Assembly: GCA_002329335.1 (NCBI GenBank)
Contig: DCTY01000036.1
Location: 22,169 to 86,168 of the forward strand
Reading direction: 5' to 3'
Source: Christensenella sp. UBA1428
GTDB lineage: Bacteria; Bacillota; Clostridia; Christensenellales; UBA1750
Length of the DNA stretch: 64,000 nt
Part shown: positions 846 through 61,095 of the stretch, one piece after another
Position numbering within the stretch: position 1 is the first letter of the stretch
How the letters are laid out: every line of letters starts with the position of its first letter
The notes under the pieces: generated by a model
Databases searched by the model: none
Seen by the model: the letters and a program-made list of their open reading frames with translations, nothing else
What the model was told of the DNA's origin: nothing
Made by a program: the position numbers and the translations under genes

Positions 846-1490
846 TCAGTCGTTTTTTTCGTGCAGCGCCAGCACATATTTTGCAATTTCATTTTCCGGC
901 GCAAAGGTTTTCAGACAATCCTGAACCGCCTTGCCTGCCGTGGCATGGCGCATCAGCGCAGGGTCGACGGCGCGCAGGGCGTCAAGGGGCGCTTGGCATA
1001 CCGACGCTTTGACCTGCTTTAGCTGGGCGGCGTACTGCTTTTGCGCCTGCGCGCGATGGACGGGATACCCGCCGCCGGCCGGCGTGCCGAGCAGTTTTTC
1101 AAAAATATTGCGCAGGTTCAGCTCGCCGCCCCAGCCAAAGCCCTTGGCGTACGGCAGCGAGACGGCGTTGCCGGCGTTGATGCGCATAAACAGCTCGGCT
1201 TCGACCGGGTCATAGATCAGGCCGCACTGCACGCCCGGATAGCTGTTGAGCGAAAGCATGACGCCCTGGCCCGTGCCGCAGCCGGAAACGACAAAATCCA
1301 CCGCGCCGCTTGCAAGCAGCGCAAAGCCGAGCATGCCGATATGGACATAGGAAAGCTCCGGCTCCTGCGGGCCGGTTTGCCCCAGATTGTAAACGGCGTG
1401 GCCCGCGTCAAACGCGCACTGGCTCAGCGCGTCGTAAATCACCGGGTTTTTTTCACACTGGCTGACTTCGTTTAAAAGCGCGATTCTCAT
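846..1490 (-). CDS. RpiB/LacA/LacB-family sugar-phosphate isomerase
   Basis: N-terminus MRIALLNE..., central VVSGCGTGQG motif typical of the RpiB/LacAB fold. RBS AAAGGAG 8 nt upstream of the ATG. Confidence 0.8.
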   Translation of the reverse strand: MRIALLNEVSQCEKNPVIYDALSQCAFDAGHAVYNLGQTGPQEPELSYVHIGMLGFALLASGAVDFVVSGCGTGQGVMLSLNSYPGVQCGLIYDPVEAELFMRINAGNAVSLPYAKGFGWGGELNLRNIFEKLLGTPAGGGYPVHRAQAQKQYAAQLKQVKASVCQAPLDALRAVDPALMRHATAGKAVQDCLKTFAPENEIAKYVLALHEKND

Positions 1491-1654
1491 GGAACATGCT
1501 CCTTTGATTTGATAGCAACAGTATAACGCGCATTTGGGGGGAGGTCAACTTTACGAAACGCCGGTTTTCTGCTATACTGAAGCTGCATTTTGACAACAGG
1601 ACAATTCGCTGCGCGCCGGGCGCGGGCGGGGACAACAAAAGGAGAGCGGTTTTT

Positions 1655-4054
1655 ATGGATTTTACGATGACGCCCTTTCCGGACGGCGTGCAGATTGAAG
1701 CGGGGGAGCGGCTTTTGCGCATTGCGGGCGTCGGCGCGGGGATTTTAAGAATCAACGAAACGCGCCGCGGGGCGTTTTTAAACCAGCCCAGCGAAATTGT
1801 CGTGCGCCAGGGCGGCCATCCCTGCGCCGTGACCCAAAGCGATGCGGCCGTCGTCGTGGACGCGGGGCAGATCCGGGTGCGGATGGACCGGAAATACGGC
1901 AATTTAACATTTTATGACGCCGCCGGGCGCGTGCTGCTGGATCAGCCGCGCTATGACGGACATCTGTTTGAAACGACGCCGGTATGGATCAACGAGTTTG
2001 ACCCAAGCGCCCAAATCGAGGAAAAGCAGAGCGTGGACGGCGCGCGCTCCGACGCGCAGGCGTTTACGCCCCGGCATGTGCGCGACGCTTACCAGCTGAA
2101 AATCAATTTCCTTTTCGACCGCGATGAGGGGCTTTACGGACTGGGGTCGCACGAGGAAGGGTACGGCAACCTGCGCGGCAGAAGACGCAATTTGTTTCAG
2201 TACAACATGAAGGCGTGCGTGCCGGTGCTGGTATCCACCAAGGGCTACGGCGTGCTGTTTGATTTTAGCTGCCTGATGGTGTTTCATGACGACCCGGACG
2301 GCTCGTATCTGTGGGCCGACTGTGCGGACGAACTGGACTACTACGTTTTTGCCGGCGGCGATTTTGACGGCGTGATGGGCAATTACCGCGCCCTTACCGG
2401 GGAAACGCCGATGCTGCCGCGCTGGGCGTTTGGATATTTTCAAAGCAAGCAGCGCTATCAATCCTTTCAGGAGCTTCAGGACGTCGCCGCGCGCTACCGC
2501 GCCCTGGGCGTCGGGCTGGACTGCATCGTGCAGGATTGGCGCTCCTGGCCCGAGCCGCTGTGGGGGCAGAAATCCTTTTGCCCGGTGCGCTTTGCCCAGC
2601 CGGAAAAGAACATCGCAAAGCTCCATGAAATGGACGTGCATCTGATGCTCTCCGTCTGGCCGAATATGACCGGAGACGGCGAAAACCGCATGGAGATGCT
2701 GCGTCAGGGTGTGATGCTGGGCAACCGGAGCACCTATGACGCCTTTGATCCCAAAGGACGCGCGCTGTATTGGAAACAGGCCAACGAGGGGCTGTTTTCA
2801 AAGGGGCTGGACGCCTGGTGGTGCGACTGCACCGAACCGTTTGAGGCCGACTGGGACGGCGCGGTGCGCGCCGAAAGCCACGAACGCATTGCCAAAAACA
2901 CCGCAATGTTTAAAAAATACCTTGATCCGGCCAAAATCAACGCCTATAGCCTGATGCACAGCAAGGGCATATACCAGGGGCAGCGAAATACGACCGATGA
3001 AAAGCGTGTGGTCAACCTGACCCGTTCCTCCTATGCGGGCCAGCACCGGTACGCGACGATTACCTGGTCGGGGGACGTAACGGCCAAATGGGAAACGCTG
3101 CGCCGCCATATTCCGGAAGGGTGCAATTTTACCGCAACCGGGGAACCGTACTGGTCCACGGACGCGGGCGGCTTTTTCGTCCGGCGCGCCCGGCAGTGGT
3201 TCTGGCGCGGCGATTTTGACGGCGGCGCAGCGGATCTGGGCTTTCGCGAGCTGTATGTGCGCTGGCTGTGGTACAGCGTTTTTCTGCCGATGATGCGTTC
3301 CCACGGCGACGATACCCCGCGGGAGATCTGGAATTTCGGCAATCCGGGCGAGCCGTTTTTTGAGGCGATCCGGTCGGCCATCCAGATGCGCTATGCGCTG
3401 GTGCCGTACCTTTACAGCCTGTGCGCGCGCGTCAACCAAACGGGCGCGGCGATGCTCAAGGCCCCGGCGCTGGCGTTTGCCAACGACGAAACGCTGCGCG
3501 GGCCCGTGGGCGAAACGGCGATGCTCACCGGCGATTTTCTCTATGTGCGCCCTGTAACCGAGCCGATGGATTATGGGCCGGAGAGCGCGCCGGTTTTGGG
3601 CCACGACCATCATGTGGACGTATATCTGCCCAAGGGCGCGCTGTGGTACGATTTTTATACCAACGAGCGTTTTGAAGGCGGGCAGACGGTTCATACCGCC
3701 GCGCCGCTCAGCCGCATTCCGGTTTATGTGCGCGCCGGGGCGATTTTGCCCACCGCGCGTCCGGCGCAAAGCACGGCCGCTCAGCGCGGCGCGCCGGTGA
3801 CGCTGACGGTTTATCCCGGGTGCGACGGGCGTTTTACGCTCTATGACGATGCGGGCGACGGCTACGGCTACGAGCAGGGACAATGCGCGCAGATTGATAT
3901 GACCTGGGACGATGCGGCGCGGACCCTTACGCTGGGCGCACGCCGGGGCAGCTATCCGGGGATGGCGTCGGTCTGCACCTTCCTGGTGCGTGTATCGGGC
4001 GGCGCGCCGCTTTCGATTGCTTATGACGGGGCGCAGCGGGAGATTTTATTATAG
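1655..4054 (+). CDS. Glycoside hydrolase family 31 (alpha-glucosidase/alpha-xylosidase-like)
   Basis: 799 aa. GH31 signatures PRWAFGYFQSK, DCIVQDW, DAWWCDCTEP, SGD..., MRSHG. RBS AAAGGAGAG. Confidence 0.9.
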   Translation: MDFTMTPFPDGVQIEAGERLLRIAGVGAGILRINETRRGAFLNQPSEIVVRQGGHPCAVTQSDAAVVVDAGQIRVRMDRKYGNLTFYDAAGRVLLDQPRYDGHLFETTPVWINEFDPSAQIEEKQSVDGARSDAQAFTPRHVRDAYQLKINFLFDRDEGLYGLGSHEEGYGNLRGRRRNLFQYNMKACVPVLVSTKGYGVLFDFSCLMVFHDDPDGSYLWADCADELDYYVFAGGDFDGVMGNYRALTGETPMLPRWAFGYFQSKQRYQSFQELQDVAARYRALGVGLDCIVQDWRSWPEPLWGQKSFCPVRFAQPEKNIAKLHEMDVHLMLSVWPNMTGDGENRMEMLRQGVMLGNRSTYDAFDPKGRALYWKQANEGLFSKGLDAWWCDCTEPFEADWDGAVRAESHERIAKNTAMFKKYLDPAKINAYSLMHSKGIYQGQRNTTDEKRVVNLTRSSYAGQHRYATITWSGDVTAKWETLRRHIPEGCNFTATGEPYWSTDAGGFFVRRARQWFWRGDFDGGAADLGFRELYVRWLWYSVFLPMMRSHGDDTPREIWNFGNPGEPFFEAIRSAIQMRYALVPYLYSLCARVNQTGAAMLKAPALAFANDETLRGPVGETAMLTGDFLYVRPVTEPMDYGPESAPVLGHDHHVDVYLPKGALWYDFYTNERFEGGQTVHTAAPLSRIPVYVRAGAILPTARPAQSTAAQRGAPVTLTVYPGCDGRFTLYDDAGDGYGYEQGQCAQIDMTWDDAARTLTLGARRGSYPGMASVCTFLVRVSGGAPLSIAYDGAQREILL

Positions 4055-42907: not shown

Positions 42908-43219
42908 TTCAGACGCCTCCTTTTTTTATCAAAACACCGCCTGCTGTCTTTTTGAAAACAAAAAGACAGCATCAAAAGCGATGCTGCCCAGACGGTCGGC
43001 TGTTGTCGGCGCTCATTCCCCTGTGGTAATCCACAAAACCCGTCAGTCATAAGCACCCCTGATCTGCCTTCACTATAGCACAGCGCGCCGGAGGCGTCAA
43101 GGGTGCGCGGCAAAAAAGAAATTTGGCCGAAAAAATGGACAGGACGGCAAAAAAGCGATATAATAAAGCTGCAACGATATTTTCATAATTTTGTGTCAAA
43201 CCCGAAAGGAGTGTCTGTT

Positions 43220-53915: not shown

Positions 53916-55841
53916 ATGCGCATTTGCAATACCGGCATTGTCGCGCACGTCGACGCGGGCAAAACAACGATTACCGAACAGCTGCTTTGCAAAAGCGGCG
54001 CAATTGAAAAGCCGGGCAGCGTGGACAAGGGTACGGCAAAGACGGATTATATGGACATCGAGCAGCGCCGGGGCATTTCCGTGCGCGCGGCTGCGGTGCA
54101 GCTGGTGTGGGAAAATACCCGGATTCATCTGATCGATACGCCTGGCCATGCGGACTTTTCCGCCGACGTGGAGCGGGCGCTGCGCGTGCTGGACTGCGCG
54201 GTGCTGGTGGTGTCGGCGGCGGAGGGCGTGCAGGCGCGCACCCAGCTTTTGTTTCGCGCGCTGATGCAGCGCAGGCTGCCGACGATTGTTTTTATCAATA
54301 AAACCGACCGGGTTGGCGCGGACATCGACCGGACGATGGCGCAGCTGCGCGAAAAGCTTTCGCCTCAGATGGTGCTGATCGGCGGACAGAGCGACCGGGC
54401 GCTTGGCGAAGCGCTGGCGGATCGGGACGAGGAGCTTTTCGAGCGTGTGCTGGCGGGCGAAACGATTGAGCGCGCGCGGCTGGACCGGCTCATTGCGCAG
54501 CAATGTCAGAGGCTGGAGCTTTTCCCGGTTTTCTGCGGCAGCGCGCTGCACGGCCAGGGCATGGAAGAATTGCTCTGCGCCATGGTGCGGTATTTTCCCG
54601 CCAGCCAGGGGGGCGCGGATCGTCCCTTTTCGGCGCTGGTTTATAAACTGGAGCACGACCCCAAACTGGGGGCGCTGGCGCATGTGCGCCTGTATGGGGG
54701 GAGGGTCGGCGTGCGCGACAGCCTGTACAACAACCGCACCGGGCAGCAGGAAAAGGTGACCCAGCTGTTTACCGCTTCCGGCGCGGCCCTGCGGCGCACC
54801 GACAGCGCCGTCTGCGGCGAGGTTGCCGTTTTGTGCGGTCAGGCGCATGCGCGTATCGGCGACGTGCTGGGGGATCCTCAGCCGATTCCGCCGGCGGGAA
54901 CGCCGACGCGGCCGCTGCTGTCCGTGCGCGTGCTGCCCAAAACGCCGGAGCAGACGCCTGCGCTTTTGGCGGCGCTGGAGGAATTGACCAGCGAGGATCC
55001 GATGCTGGACGTGCGCTGGGAGCCGTCGCTTCGGGAAATGCTGTTGTCCATTACCGGCCTGATTCAGCTGGAGGTTTTGGGCGAGCTTTTAAAGACGCGC
55101 TTTGGGCTGGAGGCGGATTTTGACCAGCCGACCGTTGTCTATATGGAAACGCCCGCGCAAAGCGGCACGGGCTTTGTTGCCTATACGATGCCCAAGCCCT
55201 GCTGGGCGGTAATTGAGCTGGCGTTTGAACCGCTTGAACGGGGCAGCGGCGTGGTGTTTGAGTCGGTTGTCAACCCCAACCAGATGCTGCCGCGCTATCA
55301 GGAGCATATCCGCCAGTGTCTGCCGCGCGCGCTGCGCCAGGGGCCGCTGGGCTGGCAGGTGACGGATGTGAAAATTACGCTTACCGGCGGGCACCATCAT
55401 CAGTTCCATACCCATCCGCTGGACTTTTTCGTGGCGACGCCCATGGCGGTGATGGACGGGCTGACGCGCACCGGCACCACGCTGTTGGAGCCGTATATGC
55501 GCTTTGAAGCGCATGTGCCGGAAAAATGCGGGCCGCAGATCATCGGCGAGGTCCTGCGCATGCGCGGTCAGGTGGACGATTCGCATCTGGATGCGGACGG
55601 GATCGTGCTGTGCGGCGTGGTGCCGCTGGCAACCTCGCTGAATTTTCCGGTGTATCTGGCCAGCGCGGCCTCCGGCAAGGGCACGCTGTTTGAACAGTTT
55701 GATTCCTATCGGCCCTGCCCGCTGGAGCTGGGCCGTCAAGCGCCCTATCGCGGCGTGCATCCGCTGGATACCGCGCGGTATATTCTGGCGGCAAGAGGCG
55801 CGCTTTCCGACGAGCTGGCGGCGCACGAACAATCTGTCTGA
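53916..55841 (+). CDS. TetM/TetO-family ribosomal-protection-like translational GTPase (EF-G paralogue)
   Basis: 641 aa (I recall Tet(M) as about 640 aa). Collinear with Tet(M) as recalled: GIVAHVDAGKTT, GSVDKGTAKTD, W.NT...IDTPGH.DF, TIVFINKTD. Confidence 0.8.
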   Translation: MRICNTGIVAHVDAGKTTITEQLLCKSGAIEKPGSVDKGTAKTDYMDIEQRRGISVRAAAVQLVWENTRIHLIDTPGHADFSADVERALRVLDCAVLVVSAAEGVQARTQLLFRALMQRRLPTIVFINKTDRVGADIDRTMAQLREKLSPQMVLIGGQSDRALGEALADRDEELFERVLAGETIERARLDRLIAQQCQRLELFPVFCGSALHGQGMEELLCAMVRYFPASQGGADRPFSALVYKLEHDPKLGALAHVRLYGGRVGVRDSLYNNRTGQQEKVTQLFTASGAALRRTDSAVCGEVAVLCGQAHARIGDVLGDPQPIPPAGTPTRPLLSVRVLPKTPEQTPALLAALEELTSEDPMLDVRWEPSLREMLLSITGLIQLEVLGELLKTRFGLEADFDQPTVVYMETPAQSGTGFVAYTMPKPCWAVIELAFEPLERGSGVVFESVVNPNQMLPRYQEHIRQCLPRALRQGPLGWQVTDVKITLTGGHHHQFHTHPLDFFVATPMAVMDGLTRTGTTLLEPYMRFEAHVPEKCGPQIIGEVLRMRGQVDDSHLDADGIVLCGVVPLATSLNFPVYLASAASGKGTLFEQFDSYRPCPLELGRQAPYRGVHPLDTARYILAARGALSDELAAHEQSV

Positions 55842-55898
55842 CGGGACGCGCAGCCTTGCGGCTTGCGCGCATGCTTTTGCGGAGAAAAGGAGGGGCGT

Positions 55899-56615
55899 AT
55901 GCAGATAACAGGACGAATCCATTCTTTTCAGTCCATGGGCGCGGTAGACGGCCCGGGGCTGCGGTTTGTGGTGTTTATGCAGGGATGCCCGCTGCGGTGC
56001 GCCTATTGCCATAACCCGGACACCTGGGACTTTCAGGGCGGACAGGCATATACCCCTGAGCAGGTCGCTGCGCGCGTGATGCGCTGCCTGCCGTATTTGA
56101 AAGGCGGCGGCGTTACCGTCTCCGGCGGCGAGCCGCTGGCGCAGCCGCGCTTTGTCAAAGCATTGTTTCGCCAGCTGAAGCAAAAGGGCGTTCATACGGC
56201 GCTGGATACCAGCGGCGCAGGCGATCTGGACGCTGCGCGGGAGGTGCTTGCCGATACCGATTTGGTGCTCGCGGACGTCAAATTCCTCTCCGGGGCGGAC
56301 TATCGCCGGTATTGCGGCGCGGATTTTGACCGTATCGCCGCCTTTTTGGAGCTGACGCGTCAGTGCGGCGTTGCGCTGTGGGTGCGCCAGGTTGTGGTTC
56401 CCGGCCTGAACGATACGCCTGAATCAATCGACGCGCTGGCGGCGTTTTTAAAGGATTATCCCAATCTGGAAAAAATCGAGCTGCTTGGCTTTGAAAAGCT
56501 CTGCCTTGAAAAATACGACGCGATGGGCATTGCGTTTCCCTTTCGCGATACCCCCGCGATGGACCCGGCTGCGCTGGCGCGTTTGAGCGCGCGTCTGCCG
56601 CAGCTTGGGCATTGA
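55899..56615 (+). CDS. pflA: Pyruvate formate-lyase activating enzyme
   Basis: GAVDGPGLRFVVFMQGCPLRCAYCHNPDTW radical-SAM activase signature. RBS AAAGGAGGGG. Confidence 0.9.
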   Translation: MQITGRIHSFQSMGAVDGPGLRFVVFMQGCPLRCAYCHNPDTWDFQGGQAYTPEQVAARVMRCLPYLKGGGVTVSGGEPLAQPRFVKALFRQLKQKGVHTALDTSGAGDLDAAREVLADTDLVLADVKFLSGADYRRYCGADFDRIAAFLELTRQCGVALWVRQVVVPGLNDTPESIDALAAFLKDYPNLEKIELLGFEKLCLEKYDAMGIAFPFRDTPAMDPAALARLSARLPQLGH

Positions 56616-56769
56616 GAAATAAAAGACCTGGTTGGCGCCAGCGAACGAAAAGGCGAAAAGATCCGGCGCATTTGCGCAAAATTGCGGCGCGCGGATTTTA
56701 TGGATGAAAAATTTGATGTTGGGGCTTGACAAAATGTGCGTCGGGTGCTTATAATCATTGCATAATGTG

Positions 56770-57030
56770 ACGACCGGAAAGAAGTACTTGGGTTCGCCCT
56801 TTCAGAGAGCTGCGGTTTGGTGCAACGCGGCAGGGAGCCTTGGGAAATACATTCCGTGAGCAGCGCACCAAACGGCTTTGGCCAAGTAGGCTGCGACGGG
56901 CGCGCCCGTTATCGCGATAGGGTATGCATGTACCTGAAGGCTGTCTTTGCTTTGACACAGGCAGCGAACCGAGGTGGTACCACGGGCAAGGAATTTCCGC
57001 TCGTCCTCCGTAAGGAGGACGGGCTTTTTT
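56770..57030 (+). promoter_or_regulatory. T-box riboswitch leader (candidate Tyr specifier)
   Basis: AGAGAG bay, distal-loop GGUGCAA, F-box CCGUUA, T-box GAGGUGGUACCACGG. Terminator CGTCCTCCGTAAGGAGGACG plus T-run. Promoter TTGACA-18-TATAAT at 56726-56755. Confidence 0.85.
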
Positions 57031-57080
57031 ATTTTGTCCGGCCTTGGCGACATGCAGATCAACAAGAAGGAGTGGTTCAT

Positions 57081-58640
57081 ATGTGGATCAAACTGGCGAT
57101 GCTGATTGTCTTTTTTGGGGCAATGGTCGCTGTCGGACTGCAGTGCCGCCGCCATGCGACGGATGTAAACGGCTTTGTGCTCGGCTCGCGTTCGGTCGGC
57201 CCGTGGCTGACGGCGTTTGCCTATGGCACTTCGTACTTTTCCGCGGTTATCTTTGTCGGATACGCCGGTCAATTTGGCTGGCGCTTTGGCGTGGCTTCGA
57301 CCTGGATCGGCCTTGGCAACGCGTTTTTGGGCTCGCTGCTGGCCTGGGTTGTGCTGGGCAGACGCACGCGCCTGCTGACCCGCAAGCTGGACAGCGCGAC
57401 GATGCCGGAATTTTTCGGCCGCCGCTATGACAGCCAGGCGCTGAAAATCGGCGCGTCGCTGATCATATTCGTGTTTTTGATTCCGTATACCGCGTCGCTG
57501 TACAACGGCCTTTCCCGGCTGTTTGCCATGGCGTTTCACATCGACTACACCGTATGCATTTTGCTCATGGCGGTGCTCACCGGCGTTTATGTCATCGCAG
57601 GGGGGTATATGGCCACGGCCATCAACGATTTTATTCAGGGCATTATCATGCTGGGCGGCATTGTGGCCGTTGTGGCGGCGGTGCTCAACACCAACGGCGG
57701 CTTTATCCAATCCCTTGGCGCGCTGGCGCAGGTGGAAGACCCTGCTACGCAGATTCCCGGCGTGTTCGCCTCGTTTTTCGGGCCGGATCCGCTTGGGCTT
57801 TTGTCCGTTGTGATCTTAACCAGCCTGGGCACCTGGGGCCTGCCGCAGATGGTGCAGAAATTTTACGCCATCAAATCGGAAAAATCCATCGATAAGGGGA
57901 CGATCATTTCGACGATTTTCGCCGTTGTCGTGGCGGGCGGCTGCTATTTTTTGGGCGGCTTCGGCCGGCTGTTTACCACGCAGGAGGCGGTCACGGCGGC
58001 GGGCTATGACTCCATTATTCCGGCCATGCTCTCCGGCCTGCCGGATGTGCTGATCGGCGTGGTGGTGATCCTGGTGCTTTCCGCGTCGATGTCGACGCTT
58101 TCCTCGCTGGTTTTGACCTCCGCCTCGACGCTGACGCTGGACGTCATCCGCGGGCATCTGGTCAAAAAAATGGACGGGCGCAGGCAGCTTTTCGTGATCC
58201 GCGCGCTTATTGTGGTGTTTATCGCCATTTCCGTTGTGCTGGCGGTGGTTCAGTACAAAAGCTCGGTTACGTTTATCGCGCAGCTGATGGGGATTTCCTG
58301 GGGCGCGCTGGCCGGCGCGTTTCTGGCGCCGTTCCTCTATGGCCTTTACTGGAAGCGGACGACCAGGGCGTCGGTATGGGTCAGCTTTGCAATGGGCGTG
58401 GGCCTGATGTGCGCCAATATGTTCTTTGGCGGCTTGCTCCCCGCGTTTTTGCGCTCGCCGATCAACTGCGGCGCGTTTGCGATGGTTGCGTCGCTTGTCG
58501 TGGTGCCGGTGGTCAGCCTGTTTACCAAAGCGCCTGATCACGCTTTGGTGGACGACGCCTTCTCCTGCTATGAGCAAAAGGTCGTTGTTACCAGCAAAAC
58601 GGCCCTTGGCGACGCGTCGGCACAGGAAGAGGCGCTGTGA
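57081..58640 (+). CDS. Sodium:solute symporter (SSS family)
   Basis: 519 aa, about 13 TM segments. N-terminal GFVLGSRSVGPWLTAFAYGTSYFSAV pattern of PutP/PanF-type SSS carriers. RBS GAAGGAG. Confidence 0.9.
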   Translation: MWIKLAMLIVFFGAMVAVGLQCRRHATDVNGFVLGSRSVGPWLTAFAYGTSYFSAVIFVGYAGQFGWRFGVASTWIGLGNAFLGSLLAWVVLGRRTRLLTRKLDSATMPEFFGRRYDSQALKIGASLIIFVFLIPYTASLYNGLSRLFAMAFHIDYTVCILLMAVLTGVYVIAGGYMATAINDFIQGIIMLGGIVAVVAAVLNTNGGFIQSLGALAQVEDPATQIPGVFASFFGPDPLGLLSVVILTSLGTWGLPQMVQKFYAIKSEKSIDKGTIISTIFAVVVAGGCYFLGGFGRLFTTQEAVTAAGYDSIIPAMLSGLPDVLIGVVVILVLSASMSTLSSLVLTSASTLTLDVIRGHLVKKMDGRRQLFVIRALIVVFIAISVVLAVVQYKSSVTFIAQLMGISWGALAGAFLAPFLYGLYWKRTTRASVWVSFAMGVGLMCANMFFGGLLPAFLRSPINCGAFAMVASLVVVPVVSLFTKAPDHALVDDAFSCYEQKVVVTSKTALGDASAQEEAL

Positions 58641-58792
58641 TTTTCAATCGCCCATTGGGGCGGGAGCCCCGGAAGCATAAAAATATTTTTTGAGGCCGGC
58701 CGCATGCAAGACCATCCATGCGGCCGGCTGATCCGGCGGCCGGGCGGCCGCCCCGTCAAGATTGTCAGGAATATGAAAGGAAGAACTCAATT

Positions 58793-60433
58793 ATGCCCAT
58801 TACAGATTTGCTGATCCGCAATGCTCAGCAGTACGGCAGCGAGGTTGCGCTGGTAGAAATCAACCCGGATGTGTGCGAGGTGCGCCGGCGCGTTTCCTGG
58901 CGTGAATACGAGCTGATCGAGGAGGGCGCCGCACAGACTTTCCGGCGCGAGATCACCTGGCGCGCGTTTAATGAAAAGGCCAATCGCTGCGCCAATCTGC
59001 TTTTGCAGCGCGGCGTGCGCAAGGGCGATAAGGTGGCAATTTTGCTGATGAACGGCCTGGAATGGCTGCCGGTCTATTTTGGTATTTTAAAAACCGGCGC
59101 GCTGGCAGTGCCGCTCAATTACCGCTATACCGCCGATGAAATCGCGTACTGTCTGGATCTGGCGGATGTGGACGCGCTGTTTTTCGGTCCGGAGTTTATC
59201 GGGCGCATCGAGGAAATTGTGGACGAAAAGATGCCGCGCGTCAAGCTTTTGCTCTATGTCGGCGACGCTTGCCCGACGTTTGCGGAAAACTATCTGCATC
59301 TGGCGGCCAACTGCGATTCGAGCGAGCCGGGCGTCCCGCTTTGCGATCAGGACGACGCGGCGATCTATTTTTCCTCCGGCACGACCGGGTTTCCCAAGGC
59401 GATTTTGCATCCGCACCGCAGCCTGATGCACGCCTGTGTGGTGGAACAAAAGCACCATGGTCAAACCCATGACGACGTATTTTTGTGCATACCGCCGCTT
59501 TACCATACCGGCGCCAAAATGCACTGGTTTGGCTCGCTGCTCTCCGGCGGACGCGCGGTGCTGCTCAAGGGTGTGCGCCCGGAGGTGATCTTTGATACCG
59601 TTTCGCGCGAGCACTGCACGATCGTCTGGCTTTTGGTGCCCTGGGCGCAGGATATTCTGGACGCCATCGACCGCGGACAGCTGGATCCGGCCAAATACGA
59701 GCTTTCCCAGTGGCGTCTGATGCATATCGGCGCGCAGCCGGTGCCGCCCAGCCTGATCAAGCGCTGGAAAAAAATATTCCCGCACCATGATTATGACACC
59801 AACTACGGCCTGAGCGAATCCATCGGCCCCGGCTGCGTGCATCTGGGGATTGAGAACATCGACCATGTCGGCGCAATCGGCGTGCCGGGCTATGGCTGGC
59901 AGGTTCGGATTGTCGACGAGCAGCGCCGTCCGGTTGCTCAGGGCGAGGTCGGCGAGCTGGCGGTGTATGGCCCCGGCGTCATGACCTGCTATTACAAGGA
60001 TGAAAAGGCCACGGCGGAGGTGCTCTCCGACGGATGGCTGTATACCGGCGATATGGCGATGCAGGATCCGGATGGATTTATTTATCTGGTCGACCGTAAA
60101 AAGGACGTCATCATCTCCGGCGGCGAAAACCTCTATCCGGTGCAGATCGAGGATTATCTGCGCGCCTGTCCGCAGATCAGCGACGTGGCGGTTATTGGCC
60201 TGCCCGATCCGCGTCTGGGCGAAATCGCCGCGGCGATCATCCAGGTTAAGGAGGGGCAATCCCTCACCGAAGCGCAGGTGCAGGATTTTTGCCGGGAGCT
60301 GCCGCGCTATAAGCGGCCCAGACGCATCATTTTTGCCGATGTGCCGCGCAATCCAACCGGTAAGATTGAAAAGCCGCTTTTGCGTAAAATCTACTGCGGG
60401 GAGAGCCTGGTGGCCTCTCAGGTGCGCGGATAA
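58793..60433 (+). CDS. AMP-dependent acyl-CoA synthetase/ligase
   Basis: AMP-binding motif YFSSGTTGFPKAI, YGLSE, TGDMA and C-terminal PRNPTGKI. Confidence 0.85.
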   Translation: MPITDLLIRNAQQYGSEVALVEINPDVCEVRRRVSWREYELIEEGAAQTFRREITWRAFNEKANRCANLLLQRGVRKGDKVAILLMNGLEWLPVYFGILKTGALAVPLNYRYTADEIAYCLDLADVDALFFGPEFIGRIEEIVDEKMPRVKLLLYVGDACPTFAENYLHLAANCDSSEPGVPLCDQDDAAIYFSSGTTGFPKAILHPHRSLMHACVVEQKHHGQTHDDVFLCIPPLYHTGAKMHWFGSLLSGGRAVLLKGVRPEVIFDTVSREHCTIVWLLVPWAQDILDAIDRGQLDPAKYELSQWRLMHIGAQPVPPSLIKRWKKIFPHHDYDTNYGLSESIGPGCVHLGIENIDHVGAIGVPGYGWQVRIVDEQRRPVAQGEVGELAVYGPGVMTCYYKDEKATAEVLSDGWLYTGDMAMQDPDGFIYLVDRKKDVIISGGENLYPVQIEDYLRACPQISDVAVIGLPDPRLGEIAAAIIQVKEGQSLTEAQVQDFCRELPRYKRPRRIIFADVPRNPTGKIEKPLLRKIYCGESLVASQVRG

Positions 60434-60440
60434 CGGCGCT

Positions 60441-60572
60441 ATGCAGGGATGCAAAGTGCGAAAATCTAACGGTTTTCGTCGGCTTAGCGGCAAAACCGGC
60501 AATGCCGGATTGAAAGTCAGGGAAATCGCGTTTCCTTGACAATCCTTCCTTAAAAATGTTCTTTGACACACT
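60441..60572 (+). repeat. Multi-hairpin intergenic repeat, copy D (strongly 5'-truncated)
   Basis: Aligns with the copy A 3' part from GCAGGGATGCAAAG through GAAAATCTAACGGTTTTC and GTCAGGGAAATCGCGTTTCCTTGAC to CTTTGACACACT. Lies between the ligase stop and its terminator. Confidence 0.9.
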
Positions 60573-60574
60573 GA

Positions 60575-60610
60575 AACGGATCTGCCGGTATACATGGCAG
60601 ATCCGTTTTT
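60575..60610 (+). terminator. Rho-independent terminator after the acyl-CoA ligase gene
   Basis: AACGGATCTGCC-GGTATACAT-GGCAGATCCGTT followed by TTT. Confidence 0.85.
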
Positions 60611-60630
60611 CACAGGAGGGGGGGCTTGTG

Positions 60631-61095
60631 ATGATTGAACTGAAGCTCGTTTTGCCGCAGGAGGCGGCGCAGCTGCTTGCGATGCAGCGGGCGGCGTTTA
60701 TGCCGCTGCTTGAAAAATATCATGATGACGCCACAAGCCCTGCCTGCGAATCGCAGCAGCGTGTATTGGCGCGCATCACCCAGCCGGGGAGTTTTTATTA
60801 TTGGATCGTTCTGAATCAAACGCGCATCGGCGCCGTGCGCGTGCTGGATCGGAAAAACGGCGAACGCAAAAAAATCAGCCCGATTTTTATTCTGCCTCAA
60901 TACCAGAACCGCGGTTATGCCCAGCAGGTATTTGCGCTGCTGGAAAGCGCGCACGGCCAATCGAACTGGGGGCTGGCGACCATCGAGCAGGAGACGCGCT
61001 GCTGCTATCTGTATGAGAAGCTGGGCTATACCCGGACGGGAGAACGGACGGCCGTCAATTCACGGATGACCATCGTGGGATATGTGAAAGGTTGA
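60631..61095 (+). CDS. GNAT-family N-acetyltransferase
   Basis: QNRGYAQQVFALLE acetyl-CoA motif. RBS CAGGAGGGGGG. Confidence 0.75.
   Translation: MIELKLVLPQEAAQLLAMQRAAFMPLLEKYHDDATSPACESQQRVLARITQPGSFYYWIVLNQTRIGAVRVLDRKNGERKKISPIFILPQYQNRGYAQQVFALLESAHGQSNWGLATIEQETRCCYLYEKLGYTRTGERTAVNSRMTIVGYVKG

Follow-up and report, generated by a model that had tools for sequence, protein, structure and literature searches.

Which tRNA does the leader upstream of an otherwise unnamed sodium:solute symporter gene sense, and what does that symporter carry? The question is raised by a 64,000-nt stretch of a Christensenella sp. UBA1428 contig (DCTY01000036.1; the whole stretch is called the window here, and positions are given in its coordinates). 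A first reading of the letters had described a T-box leader in front of an SSS-family transporter, assigned it a UAC (Tyr) specifier by hand and predicted from that codon the uptake of tyrosine or other aromatic amino acids. By our analysis the leader belongs to the class I transcriptional T-box riboswitches and senses tRNA-Tyr specifically, an identification that we regard as nearly certain. The genes accompanying the symporter appear to point to an aryl-acid precursor of tyrosine, 4-hydroxyphenylacetate, at least as strongly as to tyrosine. We favor, with a probability of about 0.55, the reading that the operon is the uptake and activation arm of a tyrosine-starvation salvage regulon that works via 4-hydroxyphenylacetate.

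The Rfam T-box model (RF00230) matched positions 56761-57011 of the forward strand over its full length (model positions 1-219), scoring 99.1 bits (gathering score 93) with an E-value of 1.3e-20. The promoter in front of it is the sole promoter-like site on the forward strand within 56500-61000, and its expected transcript start lies about 6 nt ahead of the start of the T-box model. The elements of the leader are as follows.

56726-56755, forward strand: sigma-70-type promoter, TTGACA and TATAAT separated by 18 nt, 12/12 hexamer matches
56761-57011, forward strand: T-box leader with Stem I, Stem II with F-box, Stem III and antiterminator (RF00230, full-length)
56767-56862, forward strand: Stem I with GA/K-turn, base stem, specifier loop, AG bay and distal loop (RF00230 alignment and covariation)
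56767-56773 with 56857-56862, forward strand: GA/K-turn, GUGACGA with UGAGCA (read from the sequence)
56780-56786 with 56844-56846, forward strand: S-turn, AGAAGUA with GAA (read from the sequence)
56804-56809, forward strand: AG bay, AGAGAG
56819-56825, forward strand: distal loop, GGUGCAA
56848-56850, forward strand: specifier codon UAC (Tyr), preceded by GAA-A (56844-47), with the conserved purine A next to it at 56851
56906-56911, forward strand: F-box, CCGUUA
56971-56986, forward strand: T-box core, GAGGUGGUACCACGGG (RF00230 alignment)
56971-57008, forward strand: antiterminator with the bulge UGGUACC at 56975-81, of which UGGU (56975-78) is the predicted partner of the tRNA 3' end ACCA
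56999-57034, forward strand: intrinsic terminator, a hairpin (56999-57024) with an 11-bp stem, GCUCGUCCUCC/GGAGGACGGGC, and a GUAA loop, followed by a U run

All motifs of Stem I (GA/K-turn, AGUA...GAA S-turn, AG bay and distal loop) aligned at RF00230 consensus positions, and every motif listed in the original prediction, from the K-turn, S-turn, AGAGAG, GGUGCAA and CCGUUA to GAGGUGGUACCACGGG and the terminator, was found where that prediction had placed it. The terminator folds with -23.2 kcal/mol (z -6.34). Since its 5' arm doubles as the 3' arm of the antiterminator, the two structures are mutually exclusive. Based on the model score, the promoter and the strong terminator, the proposed full T-box leader was confirmed, and the RNA itself is a common, textbook T-box.

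The specifier call was examined by alignment, by comparison with orthologous leaders and by covariation. The RF00230 alignment assigns the specifier position to UAC and reads the loop's 3' strand as GAA-A-UAC-A, directly 5' of the base-stem strand UUCCG. This strand (56852-56856) pairs with CGGAA at 56775-56779, and UAC together with A56851 constitutes the last unpaired bases of the loop. UAC followed by a purine is present in all ten orthologous leaders upstream of the symporter, none of which carries a non-Tyr specifier, with a spacer of 0, 1 or 2 nt after GAA; in 15 of 15 related leaders UAC plus purine abuts the base stem on its 5' side. Because this contact is kept despite the variable spacer, other registers are excluded. 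Among the 15 Tyr leaders, compensatory changes were detected in 17 of the 19 Stem I pairs, and 89.7% of the cells were paired, compared with 37-45% when the partner was slid by 1-3 columns. All five base-stem pairs changed on both sides, with 97% of base-stem cells paired. The hand-called UAC plus purine is thus borne out by the alignment, by the orthologues and by the covarying stem that frames it.

The same reading rule was applied to seven control leaders of the window's own genome, five of which precede aminoacyl-tRNA synthetase genes, and it returned the correct codon for all seven. The synthetase leaders gave ACC/ThrRS, CUC/LeuRS, UCC/SerRS, AUC/IleRS and GUC/ValRS, and the further two controls gave UGG before a TrpB-like gene and UAC before an aminotransferase-tyrS operon; the geometry of this tyrS-operon leader is the same as that of the symporter leader. 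According to TBDB (PMC7778990), the codon ending in C is the preferred specifier in two-codon families such as Tyr, and UAC is dominant for Tyr.

Aragorn detected no tRNA-Tyr gene in the window's own assembly, a metagenome-assembled genome (MAG) that is 91% complete, and the tRNA-Tyr for the discriminator test was drawn from the genome of the closest relative. That tRNA-Tyr(GUA) ends in ...CCCUUCC-A-CCA, with A73 as the discriminator base, and this end is complementary to the UGGU bulge of the leader; its anticodon GUA is complementary to the specifier UAC. Two Trp leaders of the window's own genome carry a UGGC bulge, compared to UGGU in the symporter leader. Both contacts (with the relative's tRNA) and the geometry shared with the tyrS-operon leader support the sensing of tRNA-Tyr that the codon call had implied.

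The question of cargo concerns two genes behind the leader and the spacer between them:

57081-58640, forward strand: SSS-family Na+/solute symporter, 519 aa (PF00474, SSF), with a ribosome-binding site AAGGAG at 57067-72
58694-58729, forward strand: 13-bp GC-rich hairpin without a U tract in the symporter-ligase spacer (-26.5 kcal/mol, z -4.9)
58793-60433, forward strand: FadD-like AMP-forming acyl-CoA ligase, 546 aa, a proposed 4-hydroxyphenylacetate-CoA ligase

The first gene was correctly taken for a sodium:solute symporter, as the Pfam SSF model (PF00474, TC 2.A.21) matched residues 32-430 with an E-value of 9.6e-52 and 176.6 bits against a cut-off of 22.8. Among curated models the sodium/proline carrier PutP (TIGR02121) scored 188 bits and the sodium/pantothenate carrier PanF (TIGR02119) 158 bits, both below their equivalog cut-offs of 515.5 and 328, and the ActP-type cation/acetate (phenylacetate-type) models scored 26-38 bits, below cut-offs of 750-1099. 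Comparison with solved structures returned only generic relatives for the symporter (SGLT/vSGLT/SiaT) and for the ligase (FadD13, feruloyl- and 4-coumarate-CoA ligases), and pinpointed no substrate for either. The symporter subfamily has thousands of members with more than 70% identity and is abundant in gut and rumen Clostridia, where databases name it merely 'sodium:solute symporter'. The SSS family includes carboxylate carriers, namely those of acetate, monocarboxylates, pantothenate and phenylacetate.

In the window the ligase follows the symporter after 152 nt, and no canonical terminator or promoter was found in this spacer (58640-58793). The hairpin at 58694-58729 is absent from the closest relative (L019), where the spacer measures 43 nt; candidate explanations for it are an insertion, a weak terminator and an element that affects RNA stability. 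The length of the spacer and the stability of the hairpin make co-transcription in the window uncertain; the ligase is probably transcribed together with the symporter. That symporter and ligase belong to one Tyr regulon we consider very likely. Directly 3' of the ligase lies a GNAT acetyltransferase gene (60556-61095, forward strand); GNATs regulate AMP-forming ligases by lysine acetylation.

Given the generic annotation of both proteins, we examined 80 loci encoding symporter orthologues (66-79% identity) with flanks of 1.5 kb. They were scanned with Rfam and with a home-built Stem I covariance model (R1), which was used because regex motif screens had missed one leader (L038). A T-box is located upstream of the symporter in exactly 10 of the 80 loci. 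Despite the short flanks, an orthologous ligase (64-85% identity) adjoins the symporter in 27 loci and iorA adjoins it in about 12, with the order ligase-symporter-iorA in about 11. A truncated copy of the iorA neighbor scored 606 bits against TIGR03336. In the closest relative and in L061 the T-box, the symporter and the ligase make up a tight operon. Ten genomes besides the window's own have a T-box-controlled symporter, and seven of them encode the ligase orthologue. In three of these seven (L107, L116 and L109) the ligase is encoded elsewhere, behind a T-box of its own that reads GAA-UAC-A. Altogether 14 T-boxes stand before the symporter (11) or its partner ligase (3), and all of them read UAC. 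No T-box was found at the expected place upstream of five ligase-SSS-iorA operons, contig numbers being assumed to follow accession suffixes.

A quick maximum-likelihood tree of the symporters (IQ-TREE; nine loci whose extracted range ran into the stop codon, among them L097, were left out) placed the T-box-controlled copies at no fewer than seven separate positions, interleaved with ligase- and iorA-linked copies; one of them (L079) falls inside a 98%-supported clade of ligase-SSS-iorA loci. Due to this interleaving the symporters were treated as one orthologous group, which probably shares one substrate. Orthologues with about 68-70% identity are also encoded in Treponema, Deferribacteraceae and Synergistaceae MAGs (L054, L055, L088 and L095), with the ligase alongside the Treponema copies, and this distribution suggests that the module may have spread horizontally beyond Bacillota. 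Orthologues are also encoded by three cultured strains, Flintibacter faecis BX5, Butyrivibrio sp. INlla18 and Lachnospiraceae bacterium AC2028, at loci without a T-box. In L109 the UAC-T-box-controlled ligase (854-2726, reverse strand) is broken by one in-frame TGA and its leader contains NN; it could be a pseudogene or an assembly error.

The association of the transporter with an acyl-CoA ligase and iorAB means that the substrate may be a precursor acid and not the amino acid. Induction of a CoA ligase by uncharged tRNA-Tyr is understandable only for an enzyme that contributes to tyrosine synthesis. A catabolic reading of the module was ruled out for the T-box loci, as induction by uncharged tRNA-Tyr fits tyrosine supply only. 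4-Hydroxyphenylacetate is an abundant fermentation acid of gut and rumen and the precursor of p-cresol, and rumen anaerobes reportedly carboxylate aryl-acetates reductively to obtain Phe, Tyr and Trp, as described by Allison in the 1960s. We infer that the symporter carries 4-hydroxyphenylacetate or a close aryl-acetate, and hold this assignment to be somewhat better than even. The linkage of the salvage-module genes to the symporter, by co-occurrence or by co-regulation, consists of the ligase in 27/80 loci, iorA in about 12/80, the ligase's own UAC T-box in three genomes and, in the window's own genome, two iorAB copies and the UAC T-box before the aminotransferase-tyrS operon.

In the favored reading, transcription would start from the promoter at 56726-56755 and the anticodon GUA of tRNA-Tyr would pair with UAC at 56848-50. 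When tyrosine is short, the ACCA end of uncharged tRNA-Tyr would pair with UGGU at 56975-78 and stabilize the antiterminator, the terminator at 56999-57024 would be prevented, and RNA polymerase would enter the symporter gene and probably also that of the acyl-CoA ligase, so that the operon would be transcribed. The symporter would then import 4-hydroxyphenylacetate and the ligase would convert it to 4-hydroxyphenylacetyl-CoA. One of the genome's two indolepyruvate:ferredoxin oxidoreductases (IorAB) would reductively carboxylate the CoA thioester to 4-hydroxyphenylpyruvate, from which the aminotransferase that stands with tyrS behind the other UAC T-box would make tyrosine, tyrS being induced in parallel.

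The rest of the genome, a 2.58-Mb assembly of 76 contigs, contains 18 T-box matches. The second UAC T-box (116 bits; L001/L100, G000:C16:7190-9851, reverse strand) precedes a class I/II aminotransferase and then tyrS; the aminotransferase resembles the catalytic domain of MocR without the helix-turn-helix part. A Trp T-box (AAA-UGG-A, bulge UGGC) precedes iorA-iorB and a PaaK-like ligase (L014/L102, G000:C27:22154-24359, reverse strand), which suggests a T-box-gated conversion of indoleacetate to tryptophan. T-boxes with GUC (Val; L009, C46), CUG (Leu; L008, C3) and AUC (Ile; L003, C18) specifiers stand before AMP-binding acyl-CoA ligases and hint at a T-box-gated salvage of branched-chain fatty acids. 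The L008 open reading frame joins a xylose-isomerase-like TIM barrel to the AMP-binding segment. Taken together, the pattern appears to fit the reductive-carboxylation route (acid to acyl-CoA to 2-oxo acid to amino acid), seemingly under the control of tRNA charging.

Several observations weigh against the salvage reading. The window contains no iorAB, and no T-box precedes the second iorAB copy of the genome (contig C1). The genome encodes prephenate dehydrogenase and chorismate synthase; salvage would for that reason not be obligatory and would supplement de novo synthesis. The 152-nt spacer with its stable hairpin separates symporter and ligase in the window, and seven T-box loci (L023, L038, L059, L064, L066, L079 and L097) have no ligase after the symporter and show convergent neighbors. 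Three genomes with a T-box-controlled symporter have no ligase orthologue, the best matches reaching 28-31% identity. FadD-like and PaaK-like ligases occur together in one operon (L107, where the PaaK-type aryl-acetate ligase comes after the FadD-like one), which leaves the acid assignment of each ambiguous. By model score the symporter is closer to PutP and PanF than to the ActP acetate/phenylacetate-type carriers. The assignment of its substrate is indirect, and a tyrosine importer would suit a Tyr T-box equally well.

That last explanation, in which the symporter would use Na+ to bring in tyrosine itself or aromatic amino acids and the ligase would be either a member of the Tyr regulon in its own right or a neighbor without functional relation, is the strongest competitor, although we consider tyrosine a less likely substrate than 4-hydroxyphenylacetate and give this explanation less than an even chance. 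Most of the known T-box-controlled transporters take up the amino acid of the tRNA that is sensed (Wels et al. 2008, PMC2494555), and the Tyr T-box carriers predicted there belong to the NhaC and NSS families, with no SSS member. The nearest curated SSS models include an amino-acid carrier, PutP, next to PanF; the ligase is missing after the symporter in seven of the ten other T-box loci, three of these genomes being the ones without an orthologue; and 4-hydroxyphenylacetate, like other weak acids, can in part pass through membranes unaided. However, about 11 genomes encode the symporter within ligase-SSS-iorA operons, 27 of the 80 loci have it beside the ligase, and the T-box-controlled copies share orthologous clades with these operon copies. 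It is hard to see what a tyrosine importer would do between an activating ligase and an aryl-pyruvate oxidoreductase if the pathway runs toward biosynthesis, as the T-box implies. Of the original prediction, the symporter's control by a Tyr T-box stands; tyrosine as its cargo is not secured, in view of the adjoining ligase, the ligase's own Tyr T-boxes and the neighboring iorA.

It is still less probable that the symporter takes a different precursor of tyrosine or accepts many aromatic acids (candidates being 4-hydroxyphenylpyruvate, 4-hydroxyphenyllactate, phenylacetate together with indoleacetate, or hydroxybenzoates), with the Tyr T-box as one of several regulatory set-ups. Such a range would agree with the 70 of 80 loci that have no T-box, with an Amidohydro_2 gene downstream in 11 loci and with a Phe (UUC) T-box on the iorA directly behind the symporter in L098. 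Nevertheless, every T-box on the symporter or its partner ligase carries UAC and none a Phe or Trp codon, and 2-oxo or 2-hydroxy acids need no CoA ligase. The Phe T-box of L098 (3151-3390) lies between symporter and iorA in a ligase-SSS-iorA cluster and reads GAA-UUC-C, with a pyrimidine after the codon. The Amidohydro_2 gene (PF04909, without an NCBIfam match) is directly downstream of the symporter in its 11 loci (for example L084, 3112-4182). The Amidohydro_2 family includes reversible aromatic-acid decarboxylases, and this neighbor may be a hint, and another pointer, to an aromatic-acid substrate. Finally, a specifier in the wrong register (e.g., AUA, ACA or AAU), by which the leader would sense another tRNA, is very improbable: the loop strand GAAAUACAU permits such triplets on paper and the initial call was hand-made, but the constant UAC plus purine against the covarying stem in the ten orthologues rules out AUA and ACA, the leaders with a 0-nt spacer (GAA-UAC-A) offer no alternative register at all, UAC dominates among the Tyr specifiers of TBDB (PMC7778990), and the reading rule was validated on the control leaders of the same genome.

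Two further features of the window were recorded. A ZMP/ZTP riboswitch (RF01750) is located at 42979-43060 on the reverse strand, where it scores 63.9 bits (gathering score 39). The genes directly upstream of the T-box promoter, at 53916-56615 on the forward strand, encode an EF-G/TetM-like GTPase of 641 aa and, after it, a radical-SAM activase-like protein of 250 aa (Fer4_12 and Radical_SAM); no link of this pair to the T-box operon is apparent.

In the literature searched, the coverage of which is incomplete, no paper was found that reports an SSS carrier governed by a Tyr T-box or an aryl-acetate salvage under T-box control, and within that literature the SSS symporter is a new T-box target. 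The specifier provides a functional handle on an SSS subfamily that is otherwise called only by its family name, and a testable substrate prediction for a very large uncharacterized transporter subfamily is the main value of the analysis. The wider proposal is that this subfamily constitutes a dedicated Na+:4-hydroxyphenylacetate importer that, with the FadD-like ligase, IorAB and the aminotransferase, would carry out a tRNA-Tyr-gated rebuilding of tyrosine; we regard it as evenly balanced between right and wrong. If it is true, the reductive-carboxylation route, whose physiology has been known since the 1960s, would acquire a transporter and a ligase along with a logic of regulation. In that case iorAB and ligase genes would mark salvage of 4-hydroxyphenylacetate and not its production, and the aromatic amino-acid 'catabolic' genes of gut metagenomes would often work biosynthetically.

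Compared with known systems, the leader is closest to the class I T-box of the Bacillus subtilis tyrS type (RF00230), with which it shares the architecture of Stem I, Stem II/F-box and Stem III, the UGGN-bulge antiterminator that overlaps the terminator, the UAC specifier and the U opposite the discriminator A73. It differs by one extra A between GAA and the codon, and by its target: the Bacillus subtilis type drives a tyrosyl-tRNA synthetase, whereas the present leader is predicted to drive a transporter and a ligase. Tyr T-box transporters have been predicted by Wels et al. 2008 (PMC2494555) for the NhaC-family YheL type and for the NSS family. There, as here, a Tyr T-box precedes a secondary transporter and the specifier predicts the substrate; the present carrier, however, is of the SSS family (PF00474) and is genomically tied to an acyl-CoA ligase and iorAB. 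PutP and PanF, the best-scoring curated members of the SSS family (TC 2.A.21), share the Pfam family and the length with the symporter, which nevertheless remains far under their equivalog cut-offs and differs in regulation and gene neighbors. The modules of anaerobes that combine IorAB with an aryl-acetate-CoA ligase resemble the present one in that an AMP-forming ligase and an indolepyruvate:ferredoxin oxidoreductase are likewise linked. Here the ligase is FadD-like and not of the usual PaaK type, and the module, as read from the genes, further has a dedicated Na+ symporter and T-box regulation. With respect to the reductive carboxylation of the rumen, it is the control by tRNA charging that would imply a biosynthetic direction for this module.

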